64,000 nt of DNA from Candidatus Eiseniibacteriota bacterium (GCA_963833505.1 CAWHYG010000004.1:223025-287024), one strand, 5' to 3'. Shown: positions 85 through 64,000, counted from the first letter of the stretch. Notes: generated by a model not told the origin, from the letters alone. Program-made: numbers and translations.

Positions 85-1726
85 TCAGCGGTACAGGCTC
101 TTGATCTGGCCCCAGGTTCGGACCGACACCGGAACGACCACACAGGGACTGGGGTTGCAGGTCGTGCCTGGACCCATCCATTGGCCCTGACAGTTCGCCT
201 GGGTCGTGATGGTGCAGACCTCATTGATGCAGCAAGCGCCGACCGGCGGCGGCGGGCAGGGATTCGGCGCGCATACGCTGCCGGGGCCCTGCCACGTGCC
301 TCCTTCCTGCTGACAGGTGGACCTGGTCAGCACCACACAACTTCCATCCGCGAAACAGCAAGCCCCGCTGGCCGGCTGCGTGCCGGATACGTAGGCGGCG
401 ATCCCAAGCGCCTGCGTCGGACCCCAGATGATCGATGGATCCGCCCACCCCGTCGGATAGCCGATCCCGGGGGCGATGTTCGTGCGCGGCTTGCCGCGCA
501 TTCCGTCCAGATCGGCTGCGACGCCCCAACCGGGGGTCCCGTCGGGCCACTCGCCCCAATATCCGACGAAGAAGTCGCCATTCACCGGCTCGTCCGAGGT
601 GTCGATATCGTGCAGGGTGACCTTCGGCCAGACTCCCGGAGCCGAGATCGAGATCCCGAAATCCACGTTGATCACGCTGGTCGGATTGCACCCGTCGGAA
701 TTCCACAGGTAGGCATCGAGCCTTTGACCGCTGTACATTCCGGGCTCAGCGGTCAGGGCGTACTGCTGGCCGCAGACGGTTCCAGTCGCGTTGTAGCCTT
801 CGGCAAAGGCTCCGTAGTACGGAGCTGTCTCGCCCCCGTACCACCATGTATATGCGCTTTCATAGGTTCCGTCCGCATTCATGTAGAGGTCCGAGCCGGG
901 GCAGGGATTGTTTCGGCGGCCCGCGTCCAAGCGGCCGACTCCATTCCCGACCGACCATGCTGTCTTCCCGCCATGGGCGAGGAGGCTGCCGCCGCGGGCA
1001 GGCACGGTCCCGCTACGGGTGATCGCGCCACTCTTGAATCGCGCCTTCTGGTAGCAGGGGTTCGGCGAGCAGGTCGAGCTTGGACCCAGCCAGTATCCGG
1101 CGCAGTCGGCCAGCGTTGTCATGCTGCAGGCGCCGCAAATGCAGCAGGCGCCGACGGCCACCGGGCAGGGATTTGGATTGCAGATGGTGTTCGCCCCCAT
1201 CCACTGGCCGGAGCAAGTCAACTGGGTCGTGATGGTGCAGGCCCCGTTGATGCAGCAGGCGCCCGACGGCGGGCACGGGTTCGGATTGCACACCGTGTTC
1301 GGACCCATCCACTGGCCGGAGCAGCCGGTCTGGAACGTGATCGTGCAGGTGCCGTTCGCACAACATGCGCCCGGCTGGGGACAGGGATTCGGGCTGCAGA
1401 CTGTGTTCACGCCCTGCCACGTGCCGCCGGCCTGCGAGCACGCCGCCTGCGTCAAGAGCCGGCAGGTGCCGTCCGGGAAGCAGCAAGCGCCCATAGACCT
1501 TCCACACGTCGATGGCGCCGGGACCGGATCCATCGATCCGGCTCACCGCGTTGACACAGGAAGACAAGGGAGCGATGCCGCAGTAGTCCGAGGTGTCCAC
1601 GGTGTACGAGAGGCCGGGGTAGTGGACGATGAGAGTTCCGCCGGCATTCGGTCCGGCCAGGACGAACGGGGCCGCGGTGCCCATTGTCGCCAACACAACC
1701 AGGAGGACATTCACGAGTCGCCGCAT
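85..1726 (-). pseudogene. Truncated tandem paralog of the Cys-rich-repeat secreted protein at 1831-4638. The N-terminal domain reads in one frame and the repeats in another, consistent with a deletion plus a 1-nt frameshift.
   Basis: The frame starting at the ATG at 1726 encodes a signal peptide plus 'AGPNAGGTLIVHYPGLSYTVDTSDYCG...VWKVY', nearly identical to the N-terminus of the 4638 gene. About 1 nt out of frame (ORF 85..1533) follow 5+2 'GACC...PNPCP' repeats, the conserved approximately 190-aa C-domain and the '...TWGQIKSLYR' tail. The junction lies at about 1490-1530. A GGAGG RBS precedes 1726. Confidence 0.5.
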
Positions 1727-1806
1727 CTCACACGCTCCTTCCGCCGGCTCCGCTTCTGGGCCGGGGCGCAAAGCTCGAGGCCCAGCGTTCCGTAACGGTG
1801 CGCCTT

Positions 1807-1821
1807 CCGGCCTCGCGCCGG
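1807..1821 (-). terminator. Putative stem-loop terminator 3' of the 1831..4638 gene. It is the same 'ccggcctcgcgccgg' motif as at 61-75.
   Basis: Identical palindrome, positioned just after the stop at 1831-1833. Confidence 0.3.
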
Positions 1822-1830
1822 AGACGCGCG

Positions 1831-4638
1831 TCAGTGGTACAGGCTCTTGATCCGCCCCCAGGTCTGGATCGAGACGGGAACCGGGGGCGGAGGACCCGTA
1901 AGAATGTAAGCGCCGATCCCGATGGCCTGGGTCGGACCCCAGATCACCGACACGTTGCTCCAACCGGTCGGGTAGCCAATCCCGGGCGCGATGTTCGTCC
2001 GCGGCATGCCGCCGAAGCCGTCGAGGTCGGCGCCGATGAACCAGCCGGCGATTGCGCCCGGCCATTCGCCCCAGTAACCCACGAAGAAGTTGCCGGCGAG
2101 CACCTCGTCCGTCGTGTTGATGTCGGCCAGCGTGAAGCTCGGCCAGATCGCCGGCGTTGAAACGCTCAGGCCGTAGTCGACGTTGATGACGCTGGTCGGA
2201 TTGCAGCCGTCGGAGTTCCAGATGTAGGCGTCGGCCTTCTGGCCTTGGTACATGCCGGACTCGGTCGTGATGGCCCACTGCTGGCCGCAGCAACTACCTG
2301 TCGCGTCGTAGCCCTCGGCAAAGGCGCCGTAGTACGGCGCCACCTCGCCGCCATACCACCAGGTGAAGCCGTTCTCATAGGAGCCGTCCGCATTGAGCAG
2401 AAGCGTAGAGCCCGAGCACGGGTTGGTCCGAGGGCCCGCCTTGATCTTGCCGTGCCCGACGCCCACCGAGCGGGCCGTCCGGCCGGAGTGCGCCAGACCC
2501 CTACCGGTATAACGTTTGACCACCGGGCAGGGATTCGGGTTGCAGGTCGTGCCCGCGCCCATCCACTGGCCCTGGCAGTCGGTCTGCGTGGTGATGGTGC
2601 ATTGGCCGCAGATGCAGCAGGCGCCGGTGGGCGGCTGGGGGCAGGGGTTCGGCGTGCACCCCGTGTTCGCTCCCATCCACTGCCCCGGACAGTTCGCCTG
2701 GGTCGTGATGGTGCAAACCCCGTTGACGCAGCAAGCGCCGGCCGGAGGACACGGATTCGGATTGCACGTCGTGTTCGCTCCCATCCACTGCCCCGAGCAG
2801 TTCGCCTGGGTCGTGATCGTGCAGACCCCGTTGATGCAGCAGGCGCCCGCCGGCGGTTGCGGACACGGATTCGGCGTGCAGGACGTCCCCGCGCCCAGCC
2901 AGTTGCCGGTGCAGGCGCTCTGGAGGGTCACCGTGCAGCTTCCGTCAGGCTGGCAGCACGCGCCCGGCTGCGGGCAGGGATTCGGCGAGCAGGTCGTCCC
3001 CGTGCCCAACCAAGTGCCGGTGCAGGCACTCTGGAGGGTCACCGTGCAGCTCCCGTCCGACTGGCAGCACGCGCCCGGCTGCGGGCAGGGATTCGGACTG
3101 CACACCGTGTTCATGCCCTGCCACGTCCCGCCGGCCTGGGTGCACGCCGCCTGCGTCAAGAGCTGACAAGTGCCGTCCTTGAAACAGCAAGCGCCTTCAG
3201 GCTGCGGGCACGGGTTCGGCGTGCAGGTCGTGTTCGCGCCCATCCATTGGCCCGAGCAGGCAGACTGGGTCGTGATGGTGCAGGCCCCGCTGACGCAGCA
3301 GGCGCCTGACGGCGGGCACGGGTTCGGATTGCACACCGTGTTCGAACCCATCCACTGGCCTGAGCAGCCGGCCTGGAGCGTGATCGTGCAGGTCCCGTTG
3401 GCACAACATGCGCCCAGTTGGGGACAGGGATTCGGGCTGCAGACCGTGTTCGGGCCTTGCCACGAGCCACCGGCCTGCGAGCACTCCGCCCGGTTCAAGA
3501 GCTGGCAGGTGCCATCCGGAAAGCAGCAGGCGCCTTGGAGCTGCGTGCACGGATTCGGGTTGCACACGGTGTTCGGACCTTGCCACGTGCCGCCGGCCTG
3601 CAAGCACGCCGCCGGTCTCAAGAGCTGGCAGGTGCCGTCCTTGAAGCAGCAGGCGCCGATCGGCTGCGGACACGGGTTCGGCGTGCAGGTGGTGTTGTCG
3701 CCCTCATACGTGCCGCCCTGCGCGGTGCAGCCGGTTCTCGTCAGAACCTGGCAGCTTCCATCGGCGAAGCAGCAAGCGCCGGTCGGCCCCGTGCACGGAT
3801 TCGGCGTGCAGGTGGTCTTGTCGCCCTGATAGGTGCCGCCCTGCGACAAGCAGTTGGCCTTCGTCAGGACCTGGCAGGTGCCGTCGTTGAAGCAGCAGGC
3901 ACCCGTCGGCTGCGGGCAGGGGTTGGGATCGCACGAGGTGTTGTCACCCAGATACGTGCCGCCCTGCGAAGCGCAGTTGGTCTGCGTCAGGATCTGGCAG
4001 GTGCCGTCCTTGAAGCAGCACGCGCCCGTCGGCAGGACCACCGGGCAGGGATCATTGCCCGCCGTGCTGAACCCCATCGTTCCATAGGCATCGATTGGAT
4101 CCACCTTCGGCGGGATGGAGTCGTCGGTAAAGTCTCCCCCGAGCGACGGGTTCGGCCCGAGGGTGAAGGTGCCGGCACCTCCGGTGACGTACCCGGCGAA
4201 CCAATAGCACTCCACCAGGATCGTGGTCTGCGGGTTGTCCCAGATCACGGAGTTGCCTGTCCCCGAGCGCGGCCAGGTGTTGTCCGGGAACTCGACATCC
4301 CCGCAGGTGCCGTATTCCTGGGCTGGAATCGTGAGATTCCCGGAGTAGGTGATCCCGAAGCTCACGCCCTTGAGACGAGGGCTGCTGCCACCGACGAAGG
4401 CCGCATAGACCTTCCAGACCTTGACGGCTGACGGGCCGGACCCGTCGATCTCGCTCACCGCGTTGACACAGGAAGACAAGGGAGCGAGACCGCAATAGTC
4501 GGCAGTGTCCGCGGTGTAGGAGAGGTCGGGGTAGTGGACGATGAGAGTTCCGCCGGCATTCGGTCCGGCCAGGGCCCACGGGGCCGCGGTGCCCAAGGCC
4601 GCCATCACCACCAGGAGGACACTCACGATTCGCCGCAT
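1831..4638 (-). CDS. Large secreted Cys-rich repeat protein. It has a signal peptide, a conserved N-terminal approximately 85-aa domain, about 13 tandem 37-42-aa six-Cys repeats, a conserved approximately 190-aa C-domain and a 'TWGRIKSLYH' tail.
   Basis: 935-aa ORF with a GGAGG RBS 9 nt upstream and a hydrophobic signal peptide 'MRRIVSVLLVVMAALGTAAPWALA'. The repeat is 'GACCF(K/N/A/P)DGTCQ(L/V)LTxxxCxxxGGT(W/Y)QGxNTxCxPNPCPQP', alternating with a shorter 'GACCxNGxCTITTQxxCSGQWMGxNTxCxPNPCP' subtype. The C-terminus is shared with gene 85..1726. Confidence 0.8.
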   Translation of the reverse strand: MRRIVSVLLVVMAALGTAAPWALAGPNAGGTLIVHYPDLSYTADTADYCGLAPLSSCVNAVSEIDGSGPSAVKVWKVYAAFVGGSSPRLKGVSFGITYSGNLTIPAQEYGTCGDVEFPDNTWPRSGTGNSVIWDNPQTTILVECYWFAGYVTGGAGTFTLGPNPSLGGDFTDDSIPPKVDPIDAYGTMGFSTAGNDPCPVVLPTGACCFKDGTCQILTQTNCASQGGTYLGDNTSCDPNPCPQPTGACCFNDGTCQVLTKANCLSQGGTYQGDKTTCTPNPCTGPTGACCFADGSCQVLTRTGCTAQGGTYEGDNTTCTPNPCPQPIGACCFKDGTCQLLRPAACLQAGGTWQGPNTVCNPNPCTQLQGACCFPDGTCQLLNRAECSQAGGSWQGPNTVCSPNPCPQLGACCANGTCTITLQAGCSGQWMGSNTVCNPNPCPPSGACCVSGACTITTQSACSGQWMGANTTCTPNPCPQPEGACCFKDGTCQLLTQAACTQAGGTWQGMNTVCSPNPCPQPGACCQSDGSCTVTLQSACTGTWLGTGTTCSPNPCPQPGACCQPDGSCTVTLQSACTGNWLGAGTSCTPNPCPQPPAGACCINGVCTITTQANCSGQWMGANTTCNPNPCPPAGACCVNGVCTITTQANCPGQWMGANTGCTPNPCPQPPTGACCICGQCTITTQTDCQGQWMGAGTTCNPNPCPVVKRYTGRGLAHSGRTARSVGVGHGKIKAGPRTNPCSGSTLLLNADGSYENGFTWWYGGEVAPYYGAFAEGYDATGSCCGQQWAITTESGMYQGQKADAYIWNSDGCNPTSVINVDYGLSVSTPAIWPSFTLADINTTDEVLAGNFFVGYWGEWPGAIAGWFIGADLDGFGGMPRTNIAPGIGYPTGWSNVSVIWGPTQAIGIGAYILTGPPPPVPVSIQTWGRIKSLYH

Positions 4639-8245: not shown

Positions 8246-9732
8246 CCCCGGGAGCGGGCCCGCCTCCGATCGGCCGCGCCGAGGGCGCGCCGGCACAGGT
8301 GACCGAGCACACCTTCGTCATCCTGGGTGGCATGGGAGACCTGGCCGGGCGGAAGCTCCTGCCCGCGGTCTTCCGCATGGTCCGGGACGGAAGGCTCAAG
8401 AGCATGCTGATCGTCGCAGCCTCCCGGAATCGGACGATCGACGACGACGCCTATCGCCGCTGGGCGCGACAGGCACTGCTCGACGCGGGCTTCGCCGAGA
8501 CCGAGCTGTCTCGATGGTGCGACGAGTGCCTCTTCTACGAGCCGGTCGGCGAGGGATCGCTCGAGGACTATGAGGCGCTGGGCGAACGGATCCGCTCCCT
8601 GGAGCAGGGACGCGGCCGTTCGGAGAACCGGATCTTCTATCTGGCCCTGCCTCCGGAGGGGTTTTCGCCGGCGATCGAGAGCCTGGGCCGGGCCGGGCTC
8701 AACCACAGCAGCGGCTGGACGCGCATCGTGGTGGAGAAGCCCTTCGGCCGCGATCTGGACTCGGCCCGGTCGCTGAATGAGGTCCTGCACCGGAGCTTCG
8801 ACGAAACGCAGATCTATCGGATCGACCACTACCTGGGCAAGGAGACGGTCCAGAACGTGCTTTGCTTCCGCTTCGCCAATCCCATCTTCGAGTCCCAGTG
8901 GAACCGCGAACGCATCGGCCGGGTCGAGATCACGGTGTCCGAGAGCCTCGGCGTGGAAGGCCGCGGCGGCTATTACGAGCAGGCCGGCGTGCTCCGGGAC
9001 ATGATCCAGAACCACCTCACCCAGCTTCTCACGCTGATCGCGATGGAGGTGCCGGGGGGCTTCGGCGCGGATGAGATCCGCTTCGAGAAGATCAAAGCCC
9101 TCCGCTCCATTCCATCGATCGGGCCGGAGGACGTCGTCTACGGGCAGTACGGGCCGGGACAGATCGAAGGAAAGGCGGTCGTGGGCTACCAGGCGGAATC
9201 GAGGGTCGCGCCCGACTCCAAGGTTCCCACCTTCGTGGCTCTCCGGCTGTCGATCCAGAACTGGCGCTGGCAGGGGGTCCCCTTCCTGCTTCGAACCGGC
9301 AAACGGCTGCCTCGTCGGTCCACGCGGATCGCCGTCGTGTTTCGGCGTCCTCCGGTTTCCATCTTCCGGGATCTGCCGCCGGGCGCGCTGCACGGCAACG
9401 TGCTGCGGCTCGACCTCGAGCCCGATGAAGGCTTCCACCTCACCTTCGACGTGAAGAAACCGGGATCGCCGCGGCGCTTCTCCACCGAGGTTCTGCAGTT
9501 TCTCTACCGCGAGGCGTTCGAGCCGCTGCCGCCTCCGTACGAGACCCTCCTCGTCGACGTCGTCCAGGGGGATCAGACCCTTTTCGTGCACTCCGATGAG
9601 GTCGAGGCTTCCTGGCGCTTGTACACGCCGGTGCTGCAGCAGGAGCGGCCGGTCTTTCCGTATCCGGCGGGAAGCTGGGGGCCGGGGGAAGCGGATGCGC
9701 TGTTGAACGGAGAGGCTTGGATGATGCCCTGA
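8242..9732 (+). CDS. zwf: Glucose-6-phosphate 1-dehydrogenase
   Basis: 496 aa with the 'RIDHYLGKE' G6PD signature. The ATGA overlap with the upstream gnd suggests translational coupling. Confidence 0.9.
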   Translation: MTPGAGPPPIGRAEGAPAQVTEHTFVILGGMGDLAGRKLLPAVFRMVRDGRLKSMLIVAASRNRTIDDDAYRRWARQALLDAGFAETELSRWCDECLFYEPVGEGSLEDYEALGERIRSLEQGRGRSENRIFYLALPPEGFSPAIESLGRAGLNHSSGWTRIVVEKPFGRDLDSARSLNEVLHRSFDETQIYRIDHYLGKETVQNVLCFRFANPIFESQWNRERIGRVEITVSESLGVEGRGGYYEQAGVLRDMIQNHLTQLLTLIAMEVPGGFGADEIRFEKIKALRSIPSIGPEDVVYGQYGPGQIEGKAVVGYQAESRVAPDSKVPTFVALRLSIQNWRWQGVPFLLRTGKRLPRRSTRIAVVFRRPPVSIFRDLPPGALHGNVLRLDLEPDEGFHLTFDVKKPGSPRRFSTEVLQFLYREAFEPLPPPYETLLVDVVQGDQTLFVHSDEVEASWRLYTPVLQQERPVFPYPAGSWGPGEADALLNGEAWMMP

Positions 9733-9760
9733 CCCGGCATCCTGGCCTCTGAGGATCATT

Positions 9761-10921
9761 CTATCTCCCCGGATCAGAGTCTCCGCAGCTCCCCAGCAGC
9801 TCCCCCCGGTAGGCGTAGAGGCTGAAGATCCCTCCGGTGTGCAGGAAGAGGACGTTCTCCCCCGCCCGGAAGCGCCCGCGACGCGCCTCCTCGCACAGGC
9901 CATAGAAAGCCTTCCCGGTATAGACGGGATCAAGCAAGAGACCGTCCTCACGCGCGGTTTCCCGGAGAAACCGGAGCAGCGCCGGCCAGGTCCTGGCGTA
10001 GCCGGGGCCCTTGTATCCTTCGATGATCCGCACGTCCTCCCGCCGGATCAGCGTCTGGCCCGACGCGGAACCATCCGATCCCGCGGCGGCGCCTCGGGCT
10101 GAAAACCGCGCGAAAAACTCCTCCGCGATCGCGAGCACCCGCTCCTCGAAATACGCCGCATCGTCGCAGACGTTCACGCCCCAGATCTTCGTGCGAAGGC
10201 CGCGGTCCCGCGCGCCCAGGAGAAGCCCGGCCAGCGTGCCGCCCGAACCGGTGGCGCAGACGATGTGATCCCACGGGGAATCGATCGGCGCGCCGGGGGT
10301 CGACTCCGGGCCGCAAACCCCGCGGTCCAGATGTCCCAAGATCGGGCCGATCTCCTCGTCCTCGGCGTTGGCTTGGGCGCGGTTCTCCGGCGGGATTCCC
10401 TGCCGGATCAGCTCGTCGATGAGCATCAGATAGCCGCACGATCCCAGCGCGTTCGAGCCGCCTTCGGGGATCACGTAGGGGCGCCGGCCACGGGCGCGCG
10501 CCTCCTCGGCCGCCGCGCGCATGAGCGCCGCGCGATCGGCGTACTGCTCGGGGCTGATGAAGCGAAGCTCGGCGCCTACCAGCACGTTCAGCAGCAGGTT
10601 GCCGTCGCGATCGCCAGGGTCCTCGCCGCGCAGGAACAGAAGGCTGTCCATGTCCAGGCGGCGCGCCGCGACCGCGGTGGCGCGGCAGTGGTTCGATTGC
10701 ACGCCGCCGCAGGTCAGGATCAGGTCGGCGCGCTGCTCACGGGCCTCGGACAGAAGGAACTCGAGCTTCCGCACCTTATTGCCGGAGAGGTCCAGCCCGG
10801 TCTCGTCATCGTGTTTGACGAAGATGCGCGGGCCGGCCAGATCCTCGCTCAACCGCCGAAGAAACCGGATGCGCGTCGGGAAGATCCCGAGATGAATCCG
10901 CGGCGGAAGCTGGAAACTCAC
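9761..10921 (-). CDS. PLP-dependent ACC deaminase / D-cysteine desulfhydrase family protein
   Basis: 386 aa with 'SGNKVRKLEFLL' and 'CGGVQSNHCRATA' motifs of the ACCD/DcyD family. Longer than typical, with internal insertions. Confidence 0.7.
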   Translation of the reverse strand: MSFQLPPRIHLGIFPTRIRFLRRLSEDLAGPRIFVKHDDETGLDLSGNKVRKLEFLLSEAREQRADLILTCGGVQSNHCRATAVAARRLDMDSLLFLRGEDPGDRDGNLLLNVLVGAELRFISPEQYADRAALMRAAAEEARARGRRPYVIPEGGSNALGSCGYLMLIDELIRQGIPPENRAQANAEDEEIGPILGHLDRGVCGPESTPGAPIDSPWDHIVCATGSGGTLAGLLLGARDRGLRTKIWGVNVCDDAAYFEERVLAIAEEFFARFSARGAAAGSDGSASGQTLIRREDVRIIEGYKGPGYARTWPALLRFLRETAREDGLLLDPVYTGKAFYGLCEEARRGRFRAGENVLFLHTGGIFSLYAYRGELLGSCGDSDPGR

Positions 10922-24329: not shown

Positions 24330-25602
24330 CTATCGGATCAGCGTCAACCTGCTGGTCAGCACTCTGGGTCCGGTCGCCAATCGGATCACGTATATGCCGG
24401 ACGGCAGCGGCCTGCCGCCTTCATCGCAGGAATCCCAGCGGATCGAATGTAGGCCGGCGTCCTCTCGTTCACTCACCAGACGCCGGATCTGCCGGCCGGA
24501 AACATCGAGGACGTCCAGGACGACGCTGACGGGAGCCGCCAAGCCGTATCTGATCGCCACCGGGCCGGCGCTGGGGTTCGGTTCCGGCTCAGGCCGCAGG
24601 AATCGAGCGACCTCCCCCACCTGGGCCGAGGAGGTCGGGCACGGGTTCGGGTTGCAGGGGACGCCGTAGCCCTGGAAGAACCCGAGCTCCTGCCAAAGCG
24701 GCGACGCCATTATTTACACCGGTGCCCATGGGGTACCATCCACTTCCATCCCACCGGGCGATGTAGCTCGCCGGTTTCCCGCCGGCCTGGGTGAAAGCTC
24801 CCCCGGCAATCAGGTCCCCGTTATAGACTGCCAAAGCAACGACTGAACCGTTCGTCCCGGAACCGAGGGGCTGCCAGGTCGTGCCGTTCCATGCGGCGAC
24901 GTGGTTCGCTCCTTGCCCGCCCGCCAGCGGAAAGTAGCCGCCCGCAACCACCGTGCCGTTATAGTCCGCCAGTGACTCGACTTCTCCGCTCATCCCTGAC
25001 GACATGGGTGCCCACGTGGTGCCATTCCACTCCGCGATCATGTTCGCCGCGAACCCCCCCGCCGTGTGGAAGCCCCCGCCGACGATGAGATTCGACGCGA
25101 AGGGAAGGAGCACCTGCACGAAGCCATCGCTGATGCCTGACCCCAGCGGCCACCAGGCATTGCCGTCCCACCTCGCGATCGAGTTCGCCGGACGACCGCC
25201 GGCGTGGCCGAAATACCCGCCCACTATCAAGCTTCCCGAGTACACAGCAGCCGCGTAGGCCTCGCCGTTGACTCCCGCGCCGAGGGGCTCCCAGCTCGTG
25301 CCGGACCACTGAGCGACGTAGGAGGCGTTGTCTGGCTCTATGCCCTGGAACGAACCCACCGCGATCAGCGTCCCGTTATAGACCGCCAGTCCCGACACTG
25401 GGGTTTCCGCAGGCGGCCCGCACAGTCCAGCGAGCGTCCCGCACCAATCGGCGCGGGACTGGCACGGCAGCACAAGAAGGCCGGCAATCCCCAGCAGGAG
25501 AACCCAAGCGCCGTGGCTTGCGGTCCGGTGGTTGCCGGATGCCCGCAAAACAGGGAAACCCCACCGACCTGTCCGCGACGCCCCTTCAACGAGCGAGCTC
25601 AT
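24330..25602 (-). CDS. Secreted beta-propeller-like repeat protein with a 'CNPNPCP' linker and a FlgD-Ig/T9SS-like C-terminal domain. Split into two ORFs by a frameshift near 24600-24700.
   Basis: ORF 24589..25602 carries a signal peptide and repeated 'W(N/D)G(T/S)xWxPLGxG' blades. ORF 24330..24710 carries 'GYGVPCNPNPCP' plus '...GIYVIRLATGPRVLTSRLTLIR'. The two ORFs overlap by 120 nt in different frames. Confidence 0.6.
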
Positions 25603-26177
25603 CTCTGAACCTCCATGTGGGCCTGTTCATGACGCTGCCCGACCGTCTCCAGCTGTGGCCGAGGTGCGGTGTCTGGGCCTGGCCACTTCCGGCCGATGAT
25701 CACCCTCGCGGGAGAACCACGACCGGCGCCGTTGGCTGTTCTCAACCACATGAGGCGGCCTCGGTGTGCGTTGTGGGCGGGGCAATGGGAGTCTGCCGAA
25801 AGCTGCGCGACCTGTGGGACCCCGCGACTCATAACGCGCCTCCGCTCGCTGATCATTCTGCACTCCGCACGGCTCGGTTCATTGGAGCGTATATAATCAT
25901 CCCGCATCAGAACCGGGCTGTCAATTCTGATGTTGACTCGCCATGCGAAGGTCACACGACAGCAACTGGCGCGTACCACGGGAGGCCGAGGGACCGCCGG
26001 ACCCGGATCCGCTGCCCCCTTTCTGCCTGGCCCCGCAACGGTCGCGAATCCGGGGCCACGATCCCCTCGTCCCCACGGCACTACGGGCGGGTGCGACCGC
26101 CGCCGTGGCGACGCGTGCCGGAAGGGGCGCAGCCGCGAGGGCGTGTCAGCCGGCCTGCGGCCTCCCTCCCCTCAGGA

Positions 26178-36452: not shown

Positions 36453-37877
36453 CTACCGCACGAGGGTCGCGGGTGCGGACCACCGGCGTCCGGCGGCATC
36501 GGTCACGACCAGGAAGTACCGGCCCGCGGGCGCGGGTCCGCCCCGGCTGTTCCGGCCGTCCCAGGTGATGGTGGTCCCGCCGGCCGGCACCGGGCCGAGA
36601 GCCCAGGACTGGACCGGGATTCCGAGGACATCGATCACCCGGGCCTGCATCCAGCCGGCGGAGGGCACGCGCAGGTCCCAGGTGATCCGGTCGCGGCTGG
36701 GATTCGGGTGGCCGGGGGAGAGGACAAGGCTTGTGATCCCGTGCGCCGGCTCGGGAGCCGAGGAGGCCGTGCAGCCCTGCCCCCGGGCACCGATCAACTG
36801 CTGGCACGGGCTGTTCTGCGGCAGGCATGGGGAGATGTTGGTCAGGGTCCAGTCGCCGTCCGTCGTTTGCGAGCAGGCTACAGGACCGCAAAACTCCGGG
36901 TCGGTGTAGACGCAGTGGGCGTCGTATTGGATGGCGACGCCATCCCACGAGTACATGCTTGTGGTATCTACGTCGCTGCAGGCGAAAGCGGCTCCATTCA
37001 TGGCTGCCCACAGCTCGCCGCCCTGCTCGGGTGCGCAGTTTCCCCAGAGTATGCACCGTGTGAGCATCGCTTTTTGGTTTGTTTCCACGCCGCCGCCGAT
37101 GGTGCTCGAAACGTTCGCGGTGATCGTGCATCCGGAGAGGGCGTCGCCGTCGTAACCGTCCGCGAAGCATACGCCTCCCCCGCCGCCTTCTCCAGCTCGG
37201 TTCCCCGAGATCAGGCAGTTCGTGATCCGAACGTCGATGTTGAATCGGGTCAGGATCCCTCCGCCGCCATCATCTGCCTTGTTTCCGCTGATCACGCAGT
37301 GGTCCACCACCCCGCCAAAGTCGAGCAAACAGATTCCCCCTCCGTCGTAGGCGTGGCAGTCGAGGATCCGGCACTGTGAGATCGTCGGCCCGCTGGCCTC
37401 GCAGAGAATGCCTCCGCCATCGGGGTAGTTGTCATCGTTAAGTCCGGTGCCGTTCTCGATCGTGAGGTTTTCGATCCGCGAATGGGAGCCCTCCCACTCA
37501 TGCACCCAGAATCCGCGCCCGAGACCCTGGCAGTCGAGGATGGTCTGACCGGCGCCTCCACCCGAAGTCACATCTACAGCTAGGCCGTGGAGCTCGATGT
37601 CCCGGTTGCCGGGGCCGGAATAGGTCCCCGGAGCGATGAGCACGATGTCTCCATCGACGCTGCTGTTGATCGCCGCCTGGATGGTCGGGTAGTCGCCGGG
37701 AACGTGCCGCACGGTCGCGTCCGCCCGGCTTGCGAGACCCGCAAACCCGAGCAGCGCGGCGATGGAACGGACGAGGAACAAGGACCGGGACGATCGAGGG
37801 ATACCGGCGAGGGCGTTCATGGCATGCCTCCGAGAAGCCGTGCGCCCAGACGGCACCGGGCGCACGGCTCTCTTCAT
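36453..37877 (-). CDS. Secreted right-handed beta-helix (pectate-lyase-like) repeat protein with a FlgD-Ig/T9SS-like C-terminal domain
   Basis: Signal peptide, 'NCxISGNxA..GGG' parallel beta-helix repeats, and a C-terminus '...GRYFLVVTDAAGRRWSAPATLVR'. It is a paralog of 62560..63978. Confidence 0.75.
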   Translation of the reverse strand: MKRAVRPVPSGRTASRRHAMNALAGIPRSSRSLFLVRSIAALLGFAGLASRADATVRHVPGDYPTIQAAINSSVDGDIVLIAPGTYSGPGNRDIELHGLAVDVTSGGGAGQTILDCQGLGRGFWVHEWEGSHSRIENLTIENGTGLNDDNYPDGGGILCEASGPTISQCRILDCHAYDGGGICLLDFGGVVDHCVISGNKADDGGGGILTRFNIDVRITNCLISGNRAGEGGGGGVCFADGYDGDALSGCTITANVSSTIGGGVETNQKAMLTRCILWGNCAPEQGGELWAAMNGAAFACSDVDTTSMYSWDGVAIQYDAHCVYTDPEFCGPVACSQTTDGDWTLTNISPCLPQNSPCQQLIGARGQGCTASSAPEPAHGITSLVLSPGHPNPSRDRITWDLRVPSAGWMQARVIDVLGIPVQSWALGPVPAGGTTITWDGRNSRGGPAPAGRYFLVVTDAAGRRWSAPATLVR

Positions 37878-38458
37878 TACCTGATGATGGTAACAGAATT
37901 GCTCTTCGTCTTTCCAGTCTCATCCGTGACGAGAAGGAAGTAGCGCCCTGAAGCGACGCGGTTGCCGCGGCTGTCGCGGCCGTCCCAGAGGAGGGAGGTG
38001 CCCTTGTTGCTTCCCGGCCAGCCGGTCATGGCCAGTTCGAAGTCCGTGCACGTGCCATAGGCGCGGACGACCGTGCCGGTTCCATCGCTGTAGTCGCCAT
38101 CGTAGCTCACGCCGAACGTGAGCCCCTTCAAACGCGGGCTGCTGCCCGGCGGGAAGGCCGCGTACACCTTCCACACCCGCAGGGTGTCGGGCCCCGCGTC
38201 ATCGATCTCCGCCCGGACGTCGCCGCACGAGTCCGGCGCCGTCCCCTGGCTGCACACGTTCCCGCCAACGTACGTGATCCCGGGAGCGTGGATCACGAGT
38301 ACGCCACCGGCGTTCGGTCCGGCCAAAGCGGCGGACGCCGCAAGCATCAGGGCGAACGGAACAATCAGTGGGTGAGTGCGTGCGTGCGAACGGAACTCAT
38401 TTGCGTCCAAGAACCGCTTGCCGGGCGGGCGGTCCCCGCGCACCTCTCGAGCGTTCAT
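37877..38458 (-). CDS. Small secreted protein. It fuses the N-terminal 'AGPNAGG...VWKVYAAFPPGSSPRLKG' domain shared with the Cys-rich repeat proteins directly to a FlgD-like C-terminal domain.
   Basis: 193 aa. The N-terminal domain aligns with residues 25-100 of the 4638 gene. The C-terminus reads '...GRYFLLVTDETGKTKSNSVTIIR'. Confidence 0.65.
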   Translation of the reverse strand: MNAREVRGDRPPGKRFLDANEFRSHARTHPLIVPFALMLAASAALAGPNAGGVLVIHAPGITYVGGNVCSQGTAPDSCGDVRAEIDDAGPDTLRVWKVYAAFPPGSSPRLKGLTFGVSYDGDYSDGTGTVVRAYGTCTDFELAMTGWPGSNKGTSLLWDGRDSRGNRVASGRYFLLVTDETGKTKSNSVTIIR

Positions 38459-38723
38459 GGCAGACCTCCAATCGTTTCACTGACACTCTCCGCCTTTCGG
38501 GCGGAGCAACTTGCCTACGATTCAGGTCTCGCGGTGGGAACGACCGGGAGACCGCCCTGGCAAGGGCGCATCCCCGCGTCCGTTCCCCCGAATCCGCTCG
38601 AACTTGATGCCGTCCCAAGATGTCCAACGATCGAGCAACCGACAGTGAAGTTACACTGCCGCGGTGGAGTTGTCAAGATGGAATGCGATCCAACACAACG
38701 AAATGGAGTGACCTCTCTTGCGC

Positions 38724-44696: not shown

Positions 44697-45470
44697 ATGA
44701 GTCGGCGATTTGCTCTCATCCTGCTGTTGCTTGTCTGGGCGCCATCCGCGTTCGCCGTGCAGACGGCATCGGCGCCCAATGTCATCACTCCGAACCCGGG
44801 CTGGATCCACGGTCCGAGCCGGGCCACCATGGCTCTGCTCGAAACCACGACGACCGCTCTCGGCGGTGTGCTCAGCGCGCTGGGCTATGGCTACGACGAG
44901 TACCAGGGTCCTCCGTTCCCGACGAGCCTGTCCGGCTACACGGATGTGTTCCTTGGGATGGACGGCGGTCTGGTTGAGCCGTCTGACGTTCAGAACCTGG
45001 CCAACTACGCTTCGGCCGGCGGCCGGCTGCACTTCTTCGGCGGCACCTGCTGGCAGGACTACGTCAACGGGATGAACACCTACCTGGTCCAGAACAACAC
45101 CAGCAACTACTGCTGGACCGAGGTCGGCGGATATCCCGACGTCACGGTCGTCGATCCCGAGAACGGTCTGGCTTCGGGACTTCCGGCGACCTATGAGTTC
45201 ACCAACCCGGCGGCGTCGTTCTATCAGTTCCGCGCCACCGACCCCGCCATCGCGGTCGCGTGCGACAACGGGGACGGCTACCACATGCTCTTCTCGAAGC
45301 GGATCGGTTCCGGCGACTTCGATTACTGCATCAACAGCTCTTACATCAGCTACTGGGCCGGCCAGGACCTGGCCTGGATGACCACGGTCGTCTCGAACAT
45401 GCTCGTGTGCTGCGGCCCGGTCCCGGTACAGAGCGTGACCTGGGGGCGAATCAAGGTCACCTATCGGTAG
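44697..45470 (+). CDS. Secreted hypothetical protein that ends in the 'PVQSVTWGRIKVTYR' tail shared with the Cys-rich repeat proteins
   Basis: 257 aa with the signal peptide 'MSRRFALILLLLVWAPSAFA'. The C-terminal 15 aa match the tails of the 85 and 1831 genes. Confidence 0.65.
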   Translation: MSRRFALILLLLVWAPSAFAVQTASAPNVITPNPGWIHGPSRATMALLETTTTALGGVLSALGYGYDEYQGPPFPTSLSGYTDVFLGMDGGLVEPSDVQNLANYASAGGRLHFFGGTCWQDYVNGMNTYLVQNNTSNYCWTEVGGYPDVTVVDPENGLASGLPATYEFTNPAASFYQFRATDPAIAVACDNGDGYHMLFSKRIGSGDFDYCINSSYISYWAGQDLAWMTTVVSNMLVCCGPVPVQSVTWGRIKVTYR

Positions 45471-50112: not shown

Positions 50113-50609
50113 GCGAGGACCGACCGCGCCGCCTGGGGTGACGCGCCGTTCATGCTCGCCCGTGGATCGCGCCCTCTGTCGCACTGGGGCCCTGCAGGCT
50201 CGATGTGACATCTTGTCCGACGTTTGGCCGGGCGCACAGGTCCTCCGGGAAAAAACCTCTCAGACCGACCCTGCCGGTTACGAAAGTCCCATTGAGCCTG
50301 CCCCGGTTCGAAGCTCGCCTGTAAGCCTTCCGGCCCGTCCGATCGTACGACCCATTCGTCCGCCTGGACGAATGGTGCCGGCCAAGCCTGAAAGCAAGCG
50401 AGCCCCCTAACCCGCTCCGTAGCGCCCAACCTCCCTTCATGGTCGGAATCCCGCGCACGACAAGGCGCGGATGCACCGGTTGCCCGCGGCCGTCAGCCGC
50501 ATTCATTCCCTGGCACCCTGATTGCAAACAGAGCGTTCGAACCAGGCCTCCGCGGTACTGGTCACAAGGGTCATCGTTTTTCCAGAGGAGATCGAGAAGG
50601 AGGATGTCC

Positions 50610-53600
50610 ATGAACACGGTAAACAGCCGATCCAAGTTGTACGCCGGCGTTGGAACGCGAGATCCAAACGGCCCTAGACGTTCCGCGGCGCTGTTCCTGT
50701 GTGCGTTCCTGTTGCTGTTCTCCACGCCACATCATTCGGCAGCGTCGCCCTATGCCGTCGGCGTGCGGCTTGATTTTGCCACCGGCACCGCTCCCCATGC
50801 GATGGCGGTCGGAGATCTGGACGGCGACGGCAATACCGACATGGTGGTCGCAAACTACACCTCAAACACCGTGTCGGTCCTGCTCGGCTACGGCACGGGG
50901 AAACTCTCGGCCAGGCGGGACTTCGCCGTCGGAACGACTCCCTGGGGAATCGCGGTCGGGGACGTGAACGGCGACGGGCATCTCGACGTCGTAACCGCGA
51001 ACTACTCGTCCAACACGGTGTCGGTGCTCCTGGGAGACGGCGCGGGCGGATTCTCGCCGAAGCGGGACTTCGCGACCGGAGCGCATCCACTTTCGGTCGC
51101 GATCCGGGACGTCAACGGAGACGGAAGGTCCGACCTGGTTGTGGCCGACTGGAGCGCGAACACGGTTTCGGTGCTGCTGGGCGATGGTCAGGGAGGCTTC
51201 GGGACCAAGACCGACTACGTGACCGGAACCCAGCCTTTCTGGGTCGCGATCGAGGATGTGAGCGGAGACGGCAGGCCGGACCTCGTGGTGGCAAGCCACA
51301 TCTCGAACGCCGTCTCCGTGCTGCTGGCCGACAGCCTGGGAGGCTTCCGTCCCAAGGTCGACTACCCGACCGGGAACGGTCCGTATTGCGTGGCGATCTC
51401 GGACGTGAACAACGACGGAAAGCCCGACCTGGCGGTTGCGAACATCGACGCCAACACGGTGTCCGTGCTTCTGAACACCGGCGGCGGAGTCTTCGGCACG
51501 AAGACCGACTATGCGGCCGGCTCCTCCCCCACCTCGGTCCGAATCGGAGACCTGAACGGCGATGGGAAGGCGGACCTGGTGGCCACGAACGCCGCCTCCA
51601 ACACCGTGTCCGTGTTTCTCGGCAACGGCAACGGCACCTTCGGAACGAAGACCGACTTCACCACAGGAACCGAGCCGCGGGCGGTCGCGCTCTGCGACAT
51701 GAACGGCGACGGCCAGGTCGATCTGGCGTTGGTCGACCGCGCCGCCAACACTGCCTCGGTTCTGCTCGGCAACACCCGGGGCCTCTTCGGGGCGAGCGAC
51801 AGCCTCCGCACCGGGCACAATCCCAGCGCGATGGCTTCCGGCGATCTGAACGGGGATGGGATTCCCGACGTGGCGGTCACCAACGCCGGCTCCAACACGG
51901 TATCGGTCTTCCTCGGCCTGAGCGCGGGCGGGTTCGCGGCAAAGACCGACTTCGCGACCGGGACCCGTCCCATGGGGGTCGCCATCGGGGATGTGAACCT
52001 CGACGGACATCCCGACCTTGCCGTGGCGAACATCAGCTCCAGCACGGTCTCGGTCCTGCTCGGAAACGGCGCGGGCGGGTTCGGGACCAAGACCGATTTC
52101 CCAACCGGATCAGGTCCCAACTCCGTTTCTCTGGTAGACGTCAGCAACGACGGGAAGGCGGACCTGGTGGTGACCAACCAGAACGCAGGCACCGTTTCGG
52201 TTCTCCTCGGCAACGGCAGTGGCGGATTCGGGACGAAAACCGACTTCACGTGCGGAACCTATCCCAATTCCGTCGCCGTCGGCGACCTGAACGGAGACGG
52301 GAATCCGGACCTGTCGGTGGCCAACCTGGGCTCCAACTCGGTGTCGGTTCTCCTCGGCAACGGTGCGGGCGGGTTCGGCACGAAGACCGACTTCACGACG
52401 GGGACGTATCCGCGATCGATCGTGATCGGGGATCTGAACGCCGACACCAGGCTGGACGTCGCGGTGGCGGACTCGGGCTCCAACGCCGTCTCGGTGCTCC
52501 TCGGCAACGGAACGGGCGGGTTCGGCACGAAGACGGACTTCCCGACCGGAGCGGGGCCCCGGTCGATGATCATCGGAGACTTGAACGGGGACGGAAACCT
52601 CGACCTAGCCACGGCGAACCCGAACGCCAGTTCGATTTCGGTGCTACTCGGCAACGGCGCTGGAGCGTTCGGATCTGTGAGCAGCTACCACGCGAACGGC
52701 CCCGCATGTCTCGCTGAATTCGGGGCGTCTTACGACGCTGAAAGCGGACAATGGATCGATTCGAGTGACATTTGTGATCTCCCGTGGGACGAGGACGATG
52801 TCTGCTGGTTTGGGGGGCATAAGCACGTACGGCCGGCACATGGGCACGGCACGCTTCATTGCCCAACCGCCTTTCCCAGCCCACCCAGCCCGGAACTCCT
52901 GGGTGGCCCGCTCCCGTTGACCTTCCAGGTGTGCATGACCGACGTCGGGACCCTCCAGGCCCCGGCCGACTCGGTGCGCTTCTTCGATGGCACGACCCTC
53001 CTCGGCACCTCTCCGGTGAACGTGAACGGGCAGGCCGGTCTGACCCTGCCCGCCCTGTATCTCGGTGAGCGTTCGCTCACCGCCGTCTACACCGGCAGCG
53101 ACTCGCTCTTCGGCTGGATCGCGGCGCCGCAGACGATCCATGTCGTCTCCACCGCCAAGCCGGCGATCACCGGCATCACCGATGTCAGGAACGACCAAGG
53201 CCGACAGGTCCGCCTGACCTTCACGCGAAGCCCGTTCGACATCCTGAATTCGGGCACGCCGATCACGGGCTACCAGGTGTACCGGAGGATCGCGGGAGCG
53301 GAAGGAGGGGGAGGACAAGCGCTGATGACCTTCCCGCCGGCATCGCGCCATGTTCCGAGGCCCTCGGCGCAAGACGTCCAGTGCGCCGGCTGGGACTACG
53401 TCCTGACGGTGCCGGCGACAACCGAGGACATCTACGAGACCGTGGTGCCGACGCTGGCCGATTCGAACTCCTTCGGCATCCACCGGAACACCTTCTTCGT
53501 GCGCGCGGCCACGGCCACCGCCAGCGTCTACTACGATTCGCCGCCCGATTCCGGCTACTCGGTGGACAACCTGCCGCCGCTGCCGCCCGAAAAATTCGGC

Positions 53601-54137
53601 GGCGACTACGCAGGCAACTCCACAATCCTTCATTGGGCCCCGAATCTCGAACCTGATCTGTGGGACTACCATCTCTATCGCGGCAGCACGCCGGACTTCG
53701 TGCCCGGGTCGCAAAACCTGGTCGCGATCTGCGCCGACACCAGCTACGTGGACGCCGGACCGCCGGGGAACTACTACAAACTGTCCGCCATGGATGTAAA
53801 CAGCAACGAGAGCGGTTTCGCGACGACCGGACCCGTCTATCCGTCGAACGCGCCCGGCGGCGGCGCCCTCGTCTTCGCGCTCGACGGGGTGCGGCCCAAT
53901 CCGTCCTTGGGAAAGGATCTGAGGGTGACGTTCTCGCTGCCCGATGCGGCGCCGGCGCGGTTGGAGCTGATCGACCCGGCCGGGCGGCGGGTGGCGGAGC
54001 GCGAAGTCGGGTCCATGGGAGGTGGACGTCACACGGTGGACCTCGCCGCCGGTCGCAGGATGGCCGCGGGGTTCTACCTGGCGCGGTTGACGCGCGGCGG
54101 GAGCGAGCGCGTGGCGAGCGTCGTGGTTCTGAGATAA
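50610..54137 (+). CDS. Giant secreted FG-GAP/VCBS-like repeat protein (about 17 repeats of approximately 57 aa) with Ig-like region(s) and a FlgD-Ig/T9SS-like C-terminal domain
   Basis: ATG at 50610 sits 6 nt after GAAGGAGG. The signal peptide is followed by 'DLNGDGxxDLxVANxxSNTVSVLLGNGxGGFGTKTDFxTG' repeats. The C-terminus reads '...GFYLARLTRGGSERVASVVVLR'. Confidence 0.8.
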   Translation: MNTVNSRSKLYAGVGTRDPNGPRRSAALFLCAFLLLFSTPHHSAASPYAVGVRLDFATGTAPHAMAVGDLDGDGNTDMVVANYTSNTVSVLLGYGTGKLSARRDFAVGTTPWGIAVGDVNGDGHLDVVTANYSSNTVSVLLGDGAGGFSPKRDFATGAHPLSVAIRDVNGDGRSDLVVADWSANTVSVLLGDGQGGFGTKTDYVTGTQPFWVAIEDVSGDGRPDLVVASHISNAVSVLLADSLGGFRPKVDYPTGNGPYCVAISDVNNDGKPDLAVANIDANTVSVLLNTGGGVFGTKTDYAAGSSPTSVRIGDLNGDGKADLVATNAASNTVSVFLGNGNGTFGTKTDFTTGTEPRAVALCDMNGDGQVDLALVDRAANTASVLLGNTRGLFGASDSLRTGHNPSAMASGDLNGDGIPDVAVTNAGSNTVSVFLGLSAGGFAAKTDFATGTRPMGVAIGDVNLDGHPDLAVANISSSTVSVLLGNGAGGFGTKTDFPTGSGPNSVSLVDVSNDGKADLVVTNQNAGTVSVLLGNGSGGFGTKTDFTCGTYPNSVAVGDLNGDGNPDLSVANLGSNSVSVLLGNGAGGFGTKTDFTTGTYPRSIVIGDLNADTRLDVAVADSGSNAVSVLLGNGTGGFGTKTDFPTGAGPRSMIIGDLNGDGNLDLATANPNASSISVLLGNGAGAFGSVSSYHANGPACLAEFGASYDAESGQWIDSSDICDLPWDEDDVCWFGGHKHVRPAHGHGTLHCPTAFPSPPSPELLGGPLPLTFQVCMTDVGTLQAPADSVRFFDGTTLLGTSPVNVNGQAGLTLPALYLGERSLTAVYTGSDSLFGWIAAPQTIHVVSTAKPAITGITDVRNDQGRQVRLTFTRSPFDILNSGTPITGYQVYRRIAGAEGGGGQALMTFPPASRHVPRPSAQDVQCAGWDYVLTVPATTEDIYETVVPTLADSNSFGIHRNTFFVRAATATASVYYDSPPDSGYSVDNLPPLPPEKFGGDYAGNSTILHWAPNLEPDLWDYHLYRGSTPDFVPGSQNLVAICADTSYVDAGPPGNYYKLSAMDVNSNESGFATTGPVYPSNAPGGGALVFALDGVRPNPSLGKDLRVTFSLPDAAPARLELIDPAGRRVAEREVGSMGGGRHTVDLAAGRRMAAGFYLARLTRGGSERVASVVVLR

Positions 54138-62559: not shown

Positions 62560-63978
62560 TTACCGCACGATGGTCGCAGGCGCGGACCACGAGCGCCCGC
62601 CGGCAGCGGTCACGATGAGGAAGTACCGGCCCGGAGCCGCCGCAGCTCCGCGAGAGTTCCGGCCGTCCCAGACGATGGTCGTCCCACCAGCGGGTACCTG
62701 ACCGAGAGCCCAGGACTTGATCCGGCTCCCCAGGACATCGACGACCTTGGCGCTCAGCCAGCCGCGGCTGGGAACTTGGAGCTGCCAGGCAATCCGGCCG
62801 GCGCTCGGATCGGGCCGTCCCGCGGACAAGCCGGAGCCTTCCGGCGGGCGGGTCTGCCCCGGGACTCCCGAAGGATCACTGCATCCCTGTCCCTCCGCGC
62901 CGATCAACTGGCCGCAGAGGCTGCGTTGGGGCAGGCAGAGCGAAAGGCTGTTGAGCGTCCAGTCACCGGCCGTGGTCTGGCTGCAGGCGACCGCGCCGCA
63001 GAACATCGGGTCGCTGTAGATGCAGGAAGGATCGTATTGGATGGCGCCGGATTCAGTGTATACACCGGTGGAATCGATGTCAGTGCAGGTAAGGCCACTC
63101 CCGCCGCTCGAGTAGAGCTGAGCCCCTAGACCCGGCGAGCAGTTGCCCCAGACGATCGATCGCTCCAGCGTAGACTGACCAATGAGCATGCCACCTCCAC
63201 CCGCCTCAGAGTAGTTAGCCGAGATCGTGCAGTTGTTGATGAGTTCTTGGTCCTCCACCAGGATGCCGCCGCCGCCGTACTTGCCGTTGTTGCCCGTGAT
63301 CACGCAATCGGTGATAACGGTCCCGGAGTCAAAGTAGACGTACATGCCCCCCCCACGTCGGCCAGAGTTTCCGGAGATGACACATCCGCTGACCGTCGAC
63401 CCGTAGACGTAAAGGGCAAGCCCTCCCCCCTCGTCACCCGTACAGTTGATGATCTTGCAGTTCCTGATCACCGGGGAAGCCGTGTCGCAGAGGATGCCGC
63501 CGCCGTCGTCATCGGGTTGCAGCCCGAGCGAGTTCCCGTTCTCGATCGTCAGCCCCTGGATGCACGCGGTGCTCGGCTCGAAATGTCCCACGTTGAATCC
63601 GCGTCCGGCGTTCTGGCAGTCAATGATCGTCTGGTCGGCTCCCGCCTGGGATGTGATCACGATGTCCTTGCCCTTGAGGTCGATGTTCCGGTTCCCCGAG
63701 CCCCGGTAGATCCCCGGGCTGATCAGCACGGTGTCCCGGTTGGCCGAGTTGTCGATCGCGTTTTGGATGGTCGGATAGACCTGGGGAACCAATCGGGTTT
63801 TGGCCGACGTCTTGCCGGGGCCGCTCCATAGGAGGATTACGGCAGCGAGGATCGGAAGGCAGCCCCTGCGGCCATTGCGGACAGGTCGATTCCAATGAGA
63901 TGCAGTCGCCACAGGAAACCTCCCGGGAGGGCGCGCTCCGCAACAGGCCGGGGCGCGCCTCGATCCGTCAGCGTACAA
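62560..63978 (-). CDS. Secreted right-handed beta-helix repeat protein with a FlgD-Ig/T9SS-like C-terminal domain, paralog of 36453..37877
   Basis: The signal region is 'CLPILAAVILLWSG'. The motif 'VYPTIQNAIDNSANRDTVLISPGIYRGSGNRNIDL' aligns with the paralog. The C-terminus reads '...GRYFLIVTAAGGRSWSAPATIVR'. Confidence 0.75.
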   Translation of the reverse strand: MYADGSRRAPACCGARPPGRFPVATASHWNRPVRNGRRGCLPILAAVILLWSGPGKTSAKTRLVPQVYPTIQNAIDNSANRDTVLISPGIYRGSGNRNIDLKGKDIVITSQAGADQTIIDCQNAGRGFNVGHFEPSTACIQGLTIENGNSLGLQPDDDGGGILCDTASPVIRNCKIINCTGDEGGGLALYVYGSTVSGCVISGNSGRRGGGMYVYFDSGTVITDCVITGNNGKYGGGGILVEDQELINNCTISANYSEAGGGGMLIGQSTLERSIVWGNCSPGLGAQLYSSGGSGLTCTDIDSTGVYTESGAIQYDPSCIYSDPMFCGAVACSQTTAGDWTLNSLSLCLPQRSLCGQLIGAEGQGCSDPSGVPGQTRPPEGSGLSAGRPDPSAGRIAWQLQVPSRGWLSAKVVDVLGSRIKSWALGQVPAGGTTIVWDGRNSRGAAAAPGRYFLIVTAAGGRSWSAPATIVR

Positions 63979-64000
63979 TGGTAACCGTGCTGACCCTCTT

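Follow-up and report, generated by a model that had tools for sequence, protein, structure and literature searches.

Why should secreted proteins that otherwise have nothing in common end in nearly the same few residues? The question is raised by a 64,000-nucleotide stretch of a Candidatus Eiseniibacteriota genome (GCA_963833505.1 CAWHYG010000004.1:223025-287024; hereafter the window, with positions counted from its first letter), in which three genes, here called A, B and C, close with a shared C-terminal tail. A first-pass annotation, made from the DNA alone, had suggested that this tail might be a protein-sorting or anchoring tag. Our analysis supports that suggestion: the tail is C-terminal, modular, found on proteins with signal peptides, and interchangeable with the FlgD/type IX secretion system (T9SS) type A domain. 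It is probably a previously undescribed sorting or anchoring tag of 17 residues, putatively read by a partner in the cell envelope.

Three genes of the window end in the same tail

Translation of the open reading frames (ORFs) confirmed the C-termini that had been quoted for the three genes. The features concerned are as follows.

85..1533, minus strand: gene A ORF, 482 residues; Cys-rich repeats, jelly-roll domain, two more Cys-rich repeats, tail
88..138, minus strand: tail of gene A, VVPVSVRTWGQIKSLYR, then TGA
1494..1725, minus strand: out-of-frame 5' part of gene A; signal peptide MRRLVNVLLVVLATMGTAAPFVLA and about 55 residues homologous to the N-terminus of gene B
1831..4638, minus strand: gene B, 935 residues; Sec signal peptide MRRIVSVLLVVMAALGTAAPWALA, N-terminal domain, then repeats
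1834..1884, minus strand: tail of gene B, PVPVSIQTWGRIKSLYH, then TGA
44697..45470, plus strand: gene C, 257 residues; Sec signal peptide MSRRFALILLLLVWAPSAFA, GATase1/ThuA-like flavodoxin-fold body, linker, tail
45417..45467, plus strand: tail of gene C, PVPVQSVTWGRIKVTYR, then TAG

When the window was scanned in six frames for W[GAS]x[IVLM][KR]xx[YFW], exactly three sites were found, namely the tails of A, B and C, all of them nine residues ahead of the stop. A degenerate DNA pattern of the tail likewise had three matches in the window versus 0.00 in 100 dinucleotide-preserving shuffles. The tail genes are 3 of about 45 genes in the window, or several percent, and none of them matched any Pfam or NCBIfam family (E ≤ 1).

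Gene C and gene B have only the 17-residue tail in common, with 11 of the 17 positions identical (BLASTP), which bears out the claim that gene C is otherwise unrelated. Genes A and B, on the other hand, are tandem paralogues with 64% identity across 371 residues, and they therefore count as a single observation, with gene C as the independent case. In gene B, whose GC content at third codon positions is 0.86, the N-terminal domain is followed by about 13 Cys-rich repeats of 40 residues, a jelly-roll domain of about 220 residues, and the tail. The 28 nt 3' of the A and B stops are identical (57-84 and 1803-1830; TGA, then CGCGCGTCTCCGGCGCGAGGCCGGA) and include a GC-rich inverted repeat, probably a terminator that was duplicated together with the gene.

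All three proteins had been described as secreted. This holds for B and C, which have clear Sec signal peptides, but not for the gene A ORF as assembled, which lacks one. Upstream of that ORF, in another frame, lie a signal peptide and about 79 residues homologous to the N-terminus of gene B, put out of step with the 85..1533 frame by an indel of 1 nt within the run of three G at 1490-1492. With one G fewer in this run, ...DVWKVY-GACCFPDG... is read in frame. Judged from the sequence, the break may be either an assembly indel or the mark of a pseudogene, that is, a recently inactivated paralogue.

The tail closes many unrelated, probably exported proteins

Both families represented in the window keep the tail. 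All 37 database homologues of gene C, which are 41-100% identical, about 257 residues long and equipped with signal peptides, end in [ST]W[GS]x[IVL]Kxx[YF]. The jelly-roll domain of gene B has 120 listed homologues, mostly stand-alone secreted proteins of about 232 residues; 109 end in the tail, and those without it are mostly truncated or slightly degenerate. In one jelly-roll homologue (L002:5980-6513) the tail, SWGQIKALF, is followed by 80 more codons; this gene appears to have lost its stop codon, and it is among the very few internal occurrences of the tail. Another locus (L019:63-4112) holds four tandem small tail-bearing paralogues and then a fifth ending ...PPPVAE*, just short of the WGxIK core.

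A scan of a species-representative collection (185,579 species) with the pattern WCNTGGGGNNNNATCAARNNNNNNTAYMRNTRR returned at least 131 matches at no fewer than 118 loci. All 131 matches listed end at TAA, TAG or TGA, and none at TGG, which the pattern permits; their flanking consensus is the same. Among some 1.74 million six-frame residues from the loci listed and the window, 168 of 172 matches to a relaxed core lie 8-11 residues before a stop, as do 24 of the 28 that fall outside the amino-acid motif selected by the scan. We also built a position-blind profile from nine diverse tails and ran it against 1.84 billion representative proteins, which yielded at least 784 clusters (50% identity) at E ≤ 0.001. 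In the best 145 new matches, the core stands 8-10 residues from the end in 138, is followed by short extensions in 5 and is absent in 2. Both searches thus place the core near the stop of secreted proteins, the enrichment whose absence, according to the first-pass annotation, would have spoken against a tag. A word-indexed search with an X-padded tail-only profile, for which the index requires several shared words, gave 21 candidates, 6 of them short fragments.

The annotation had further asked whether the tail proteins carry signal peptides. By a heuristic test, a signal-peptide-like N-terminus was present in 122 of 137 complete carrier ORFs versus 158 of 432 control ORFs from the same loci. 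The bodies behind these N-termini are diverse: 157 carriers fall into 78 body clusters without any BLASTP relationship. They are modules typical of extracellular proteins, among them beta-helix and NosD-like bodies, Chlamydia PMP repeats, InhA-like MAM, the lamin-tail domain, NHL, CBM20, F5/8 type C and lectin-like bodies. Some match families named for other tags, including choice-of-anchor V, W and J domains, rhombosortase- and myxosortase-dependent M36 peptidases, the PEP-CTERM protein ScyF, ExeM-GG and a MYXO-CTERM family. The 116 carriers searched share no Pfam or NCBIfam model, and the most frequent NCBIfam family (E ≤ 0.1) was matched by only 8 of them, through the protein body. Neither Pfam (2025 copy) nor NCBIfam release 20 therefore has a model for the tail itself. 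Every carrier seen bears the source name 'hypothetical protein'.

The stop codons of the tail genes are skewed. TAG follows the tail in 100 of 157 genes but ends only 179 of 492 control ORFs at the same loci (Fisher p = 2e-9), a bias not accounted for by the last sense codon; among FlgD-domain genes, TAG is used in 13 of 25.

Could the tail simply have been inherited, through paralogy, or been spread as a mobile DNA cassette such as a translated repeat at the 3' ends of genes, without any function? Genes A and B, as recent tandem duplicates with identical 3' flanks, would fit this explanation, and the TAG excess could mean that tail and stop move as a unit. It is hard to square with 78 unrelated body clusters, however, or with the retention of the tail in families that have diverged to 41-45% identity. 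In addition, synonymous codons vary at every tail position and the DNA 3' of the stop is unconserved among the 131 matches listed, so that selection acts on the peptide and not on a DNA or RNA element. These two features ruled out the tail as a DNA repeat. Descent or a cassette is thus an extremely improbable account of the tail, and as a sufficient explanation it is largely refuted.

A linear module outside the fold

The tail is a self-contained linear module of 17 residues at the extreme C-terminus, with the consensus P-[V/T]-P-[V/T]-E-x-[S/T]-[S/T]-W-G-x-I-K-[A/S]-L-Y-[R/K]-stop. A residue logo, made with one representative of each of the 78 body clusters and numbered from W as position 0, reads as follows.

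Positions -8 to -4: P or A; V or T; P; V or T; E (R or D)
Positions -3 to -1: any residue; T or S; T or S
Positions 0 to +8: W; G; any residue; I; K; A or S; L; Y; R
Position +9: stop

W and K do not vary among the 78 representatives, and G, I and Y hardly do. Although these five residues were selected for by the genome scan, the same conservation is seen in the homology-defined families of genes B and C. After the core motif, just one or two residues remain. No hydrophobic stretch was found in the last 35 residues of the carriers, where the mean best 15-residue hydropathy is 0.30. A Cys lies 9-12 residues upstream of W in 60% of carriers (background 2.9% per residue), where it may belong to the final disulfide of the body or serve as a site of modification.

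AlphaFold models were considered for two unrelated families. The gene C body, a GATase1/ThuA-like flavodoxin fold by its AlphaFold model and a fold search, is predicted with a local-distance difference test score (pLDDT) above 90, and its last helix ends at residue 237; after this residue come a linker with pLDDT about 54 and a short helix over WGRIKVTY with pLDDT about 62. The gene B jelly-roll model has pLDDT above 94, and its fold ends at about residue 224 of the model, past which there is a linker and then a helix at 238-244 (pLDDT 70-75). In both families, the confident fold stops 12-14 residues before the tail, and the predicted helix is 7-8 residues long. Moreover, Cys-rich modules of 40 residues are inserted between body and tail in gene A and in the proteins P0016 and P0199. 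Since the fold ends before the tail and such insertions can separate the two, no domain has the tail as its last strand. The first-pass annotation had named just such a strand as the finding that would overturn its reading; the tail matched nothing in Pfam or NCBIfam and stands outside the fold in both AlphaFold models.

The Cys-rich repeat itself, of about 40 residues (GACCxxDGxCxxxTxxxCxxxGGxWxGxxTxCxPNPCP; about 13 copies in gene B), has no match in Pfam or NCBIfam. In many proteins and genomes it forms a spacer directly before either the tail or a FlgD-type domain (24330-24713 of the window; P0016, P0199, P0224).

A short helix behind a linker could in principle work by itself. The tail would then be a self-sufficient envelope anchor, lying peripherally on a membrane leaflet or on lipopolysaccharide, with W, I, L and Y on one face and K and R on the other. 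No dedicated machinery would be needed, just as for the membrane-targeting helices at the C-termini of MinD and PBP5. The helix predicted by AlphaFold in two families, a hydrophobic moment of 0.3-0.5 for the tail as a helix, its wealth of interfacial aromatic and basic residues, and the lack of a partner gene near the tail genes at the 118 loci listed are all consistent with this possibility. Yet 9-10 residues are very short for an in-plane anchor, and the hydrophobic moment gives a helix no advantage over a strand. Above all, W, G, I, K and Y are near-invariant, and P-V-E stands 4-6 residues upstream, in 78 unrelated families from several phyla, a sequence specificity far above what amphipathic anchors need. 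A free-standing anchor is therefore unlikely. That W-G-x-I-K-x-x-Y and P-V-E change so little from family to family and from phylum to phylum points to a specific binding site and away from generic amphipathicity.

The tail and the FlgD-type domain replace each other

The window also encodes five proteins that end in a FlgD_ig/T9SS type A domain.

24330..24713, minus strand: CNPNPCP module followed by a T9SS type A sorting domain (TIGR04183, 23.1 bits, cut-off 23)
36453..37919, minus strand: beta-helix protein with a FlgD_ig C-terminal domain (Pfam PF13229 and PF13860)
37877..38476, minus strand: secreted protein of 199 residues with a FlgD/T9SS-type end (...LLWDGRDSRGNRVASGRYFLLVTDETGKTKSNSVTIIR*); weak match to the PorZ C-terminal domain
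50325..54137, plus strand: FG-GAP repeat protein with a FlgD-type end (...GFYLARLTRGGSERVASVVVLR*)
62560..63999, minus strand: beta-helix protein with a FlgD_ig C-terminal domain (Pfam PF13229 and PF13860)

The tail is distinct from this domain, as had been proposed: it matched none of the models, yet the same searches detected the FlgD-type domain in all five proteins. FlgD_ig does not figure among the Pfam matches of the 116 tail proteins, in which tail and FlgD_ig never occur together. Instead, the two trade places on related bodies. The body of the protein at 37877..38476 is homologous to the N-terminal domain of gene B (residues 36-143; BLASTP E=1.3e-24). Similarly, P0199 and P0224, encoded on one 2.45-Mb contig, both consist of a signal peptide, a jelly-roll domain and a Cys-rich module, and one of them ends in the tail, the other in FlgD_ig. 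This exchange within one genome is the strongest argument for placing the tail in the class of sorting or anchoring tags.

To see which genes accompany the tail, we surveyed the surroundings of each match at the 118 loci listed, over at most 8 kb and in some cases less. FlgD-domain proteins were the only gene family that recurred beside tail genes, with 36 ORFs in 27 of the loci. Other clustered neighbours were kinases and sigma-54 regulators, and in ten loci with several tail genes that we inspected more closely, the neighbours are housekeeping genes.

Does the tail, then, address the T9SS-like machinery of the FlgD/type A domains as a minimal signal, for instance by mimicking their last strand? 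FlgD-type domains end in [T/S]-R-K-M-V-L-[L/V]-[R/K] and the tail in I-K-x-L-Y-R, both closing with two hydrophobic residues and R or K at the carboxylate. Both tags are used by the same genomes, frequently in neighbouring genes (the 27 loci above) and on homologous bodies, and the phyla concerned are relatives within the Fibrobacteres-Chlorobi-Bacteroidetes (FCB) group, some of them reported to have T9SS genes (PMC11285876). The likeness, though, is confined to the final three residues, too few for statistics, and the signals described are folded Ig-like domains of about 70-100 residues, whose architecture is reported to be essential (PMC11285876). A minimal T9SS signal is thus quite unlikely.

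The exchange with a secretion domain also bears on a regulatory or quality-control role, in which the tail would be recognised by a periplasmic tail-specific protease, mediate oligomerisation, or act within the nascent chain when translation terminates. The strictly C-terminal motif and the enriched TAG stops are compatible with such a role, but it would explain neither this exchange nor the restriction of the tail to signal-peptide proteins with extracellular-type domains. Known arrest peptides such as SecM and TnaC are found in short leader ORFs, not in hundreds of enzyme families. We regard a role of this kind as very unlikely, and sorting or anchoring as the better account of the tail.

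Three further features of the window were noted. At 24330-25626 (minus strand), the 127-residue ORF with the CNPNPCP module and T9SS type A domain overlaps a 338-residue ORF in another frame; to judge by the sequence, this may be a second frameshifted gene for a secreted protein. An IS66-family transposase gene (58542-60881, minus strand) lies between the FG-GAP/FlgD-domain region and the last beta-helix/FlgD-domain gene. Finally, 23143-23844 is a tandem repeat of a 42-nt unit (16.7 copies, 92% matches) with long repetitive ORFs on both strands.

Distribution and phage carriers

The record titles among the loci listed are overwhelmingly those of Candidatus Eisenbacteria/Eiseniibacteriota. Latescibacterota, Krumholzibacteriota, Cloacimonadota, Gemmatimonadota and Effluviviaceae are also represented, together with one Acidobacteriota record and one Udaeobacter record as exceptions; the remaining records are metagenome-assembled genomes of an unclassified 'bacterium'. 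Among the 118 loci listed, no title names Pseudomonadota, Bacillota, Actinomycetota or Bacteroidota. Every carrier found comes from a metagenome-assembled genome or a metagenomic contig and none from an isolate. A common root has been reported for Latescibacterota, Eisenbacteria and Effluviviacota (PMC11323493), and T9SS genes have been reported in some FCB phyla outside Bacteroidota (PMC11285876).

Genuine tails are also present on four IMG/VR contigs (L124, L120-L122). One of these (L124, IMGVR_UViG_3300045965_000132) is a phage contig with portal and major head genes. Its tail gene, at 9320-10543, sits between the replication and packaging modules and encodes the signal peptide MKRIVVVIALLCAVPALA, a LamG-like domain and the tail. 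We considered that this might be a virion protein, with the tail as a binding peptide instead of an export tag, and rejected the idea when the full gene proved to encode a LamG-like accessory protein with its own signal peptide. Such a protein does not discriminate between a binding peptide and an export tag.

A proposed model for the tail as an envelope address

Taken together, the tail has the operational marks of a C-terminal sorting tag: a short conserved end, carried by many unrelated proteins with signal peptides, restricted to particular lineages, and exchangeable. We propose that it would work in three steps. The N-terminal signal peptide, which is present on most carriers, would take the protein across the inner membrane. 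The body would then fold and leave the tail exposed on a Pro-rich flexible linker, as the short amphipathic helix that AlphaFold predicts. A putative dedicated partner, whether a receptor, a translocon or a transpeptidase, would finally read W-G-x-I-K-x-x-Y near the free C-terminus. In this way, Sec-exported proteins would be marked for a further envelope step, namely surface display, anchoring or release, and the tag would act alongside the FlgD-like T9SS type A domain of the same genomes and as a substitute for it.

Several observations weigh against this model. The residue after Tyr is variable, R in 62 and K in 6 of the 78 family representatives, and 0-4 extra residues are tolerated; a variable last residue and extensions of 1-4 residues make recognition of an exactly placed terminal carboxylate unlikely. 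The helix is predicted with moderate confidence (pLDDT 62-75). No sortase-like, receptor or recurrent enzyme gene lies beside the tail genes at the 118 loci listed. The signal-peptide test is a crude heuristic with a background of 37% in controls, and the taxonomic picture, drawn from at least 118 loci, is a sample and not a census.

A bolder version of the model seems to us possible, if decidedly tentative. The tail may be the address of an unrecognised envelope pathway that runs parallel to T9SS and has its own receptor, translocon or transpeptidase; the signal would be 17 residues long, linear and devoid of a membrane-spanning segment. Such a pathway might be confined to the clade of Eisenbacteria, Latescibacterota, Krumholzibacteriota and Effluviviacota plus Cloacimonadota and Gemmatimonadota, and phages might exploit it for secreted proteins of their own.

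The LPXTG, PEP-CTERM and T9SS domain tags have, in every case, led the way to a dedicated machine for secretion or anchoring, and C-terminal sorting tags routinely serve to predict surface proteomes. We found no description of the present motif in the literature, including work on sorting and on T9SS/FlgD in these phyla. What is new here is a C-terminal sorting tag of new architecture and putative function, which is borne by at least 784 protein clusters, in phyla that have come to light through metagenomes alone. It flags a likely surface or extracellular proteome of Eisenbacteria, Latescibacterota, Krumholzibacteriota and their relatives, with lectin-like proteins, beta-helix enzymes and proteases. 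The tag also offers a sharp query for phylogenetic profiling of envelope machinery and, at 17 residues, is portable.

Comparison with known systems

The closest counterpart of the tail is the T9SS type A domain (TIGR04183 Por_Secre_tail; FlgD_ig-like PF13860). Both are C-terminal on unrelated Sec-exported proteins of FCB phyla, with many per genome; both occur on the same body families in the genomes studied here, and in paralogues one is swapped for the other. The T9SS signal, however, is a folded Ig-like beta-sandwich of about 70-100 residues, whereas the tail is a 17-residue linear motif with a predicted linker and short helix. A, B and C showed no match to TIGR04183 or PF13860/PF18962, and the AlphaFold models of the gene B and gene C families have no such fold in this place.

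PEP-CTERM, GlyGly-CTERM, MYXO-CTERM and LPXTG are, like the tail, short lineage-specific C-terminal tags on dozens of unrelated secreted proteins per genome, and signals of this exosortase/sortase class are attached to the same 'choice-of-anchor' and protease bodies. They are tripartite, with a motif, a hydrophobic transmembrane helix and a basic cluster, in contrast to the tail, which lacks a hydrophobic segment. The low hydropathy (0.30) and the one or two residues after the core do not suit an exosortase or sortase substrate, and no sorting-signal model was matched. That the tail matches none of the tags known to the first-pass annotation was upheld against the NCBIfam models for PEP-CTERM, GlyGly-CTERM, MYXO-CTERM and LPXTG.

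Two other groups of C-terminal elements invite comparison. The membrane-targeting sequence of MinD and the anchor of PBP5/PBP6 are short amphipathic helices at the extreme C-terminus after a flexible linker, as is predicted for the tail. These vary widely in sequence and belong to one family each, whereas the tail is near-invariant at 5 of 9 core positions in at least 78 families. The beta-signal of outer-membrane proteins and the C-terminus of chaperone-usher pilins share with the tail a conserved aromatic residue near the C-terminus and are read by an envelope assembly factor. Their strands are integral to a beta-barrel or an Ig fold, and the last residue of barrels is usually aromatic; the tail, by contrast, stands outside the fold and has R or K as its usual last residue (the 62 and 6 of 78 given above), on soluble bodies, which sets it apart from the beta-signal. 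Nor do the carriers resemble type I secretion substrates, which have no Sec signal peptide, given the signal peptides of B, C and 122 of 137 carriers. With neither a membrane-spanning segment nor a folded domain, the tail probably works by a mechanism other than that of any class described so far.

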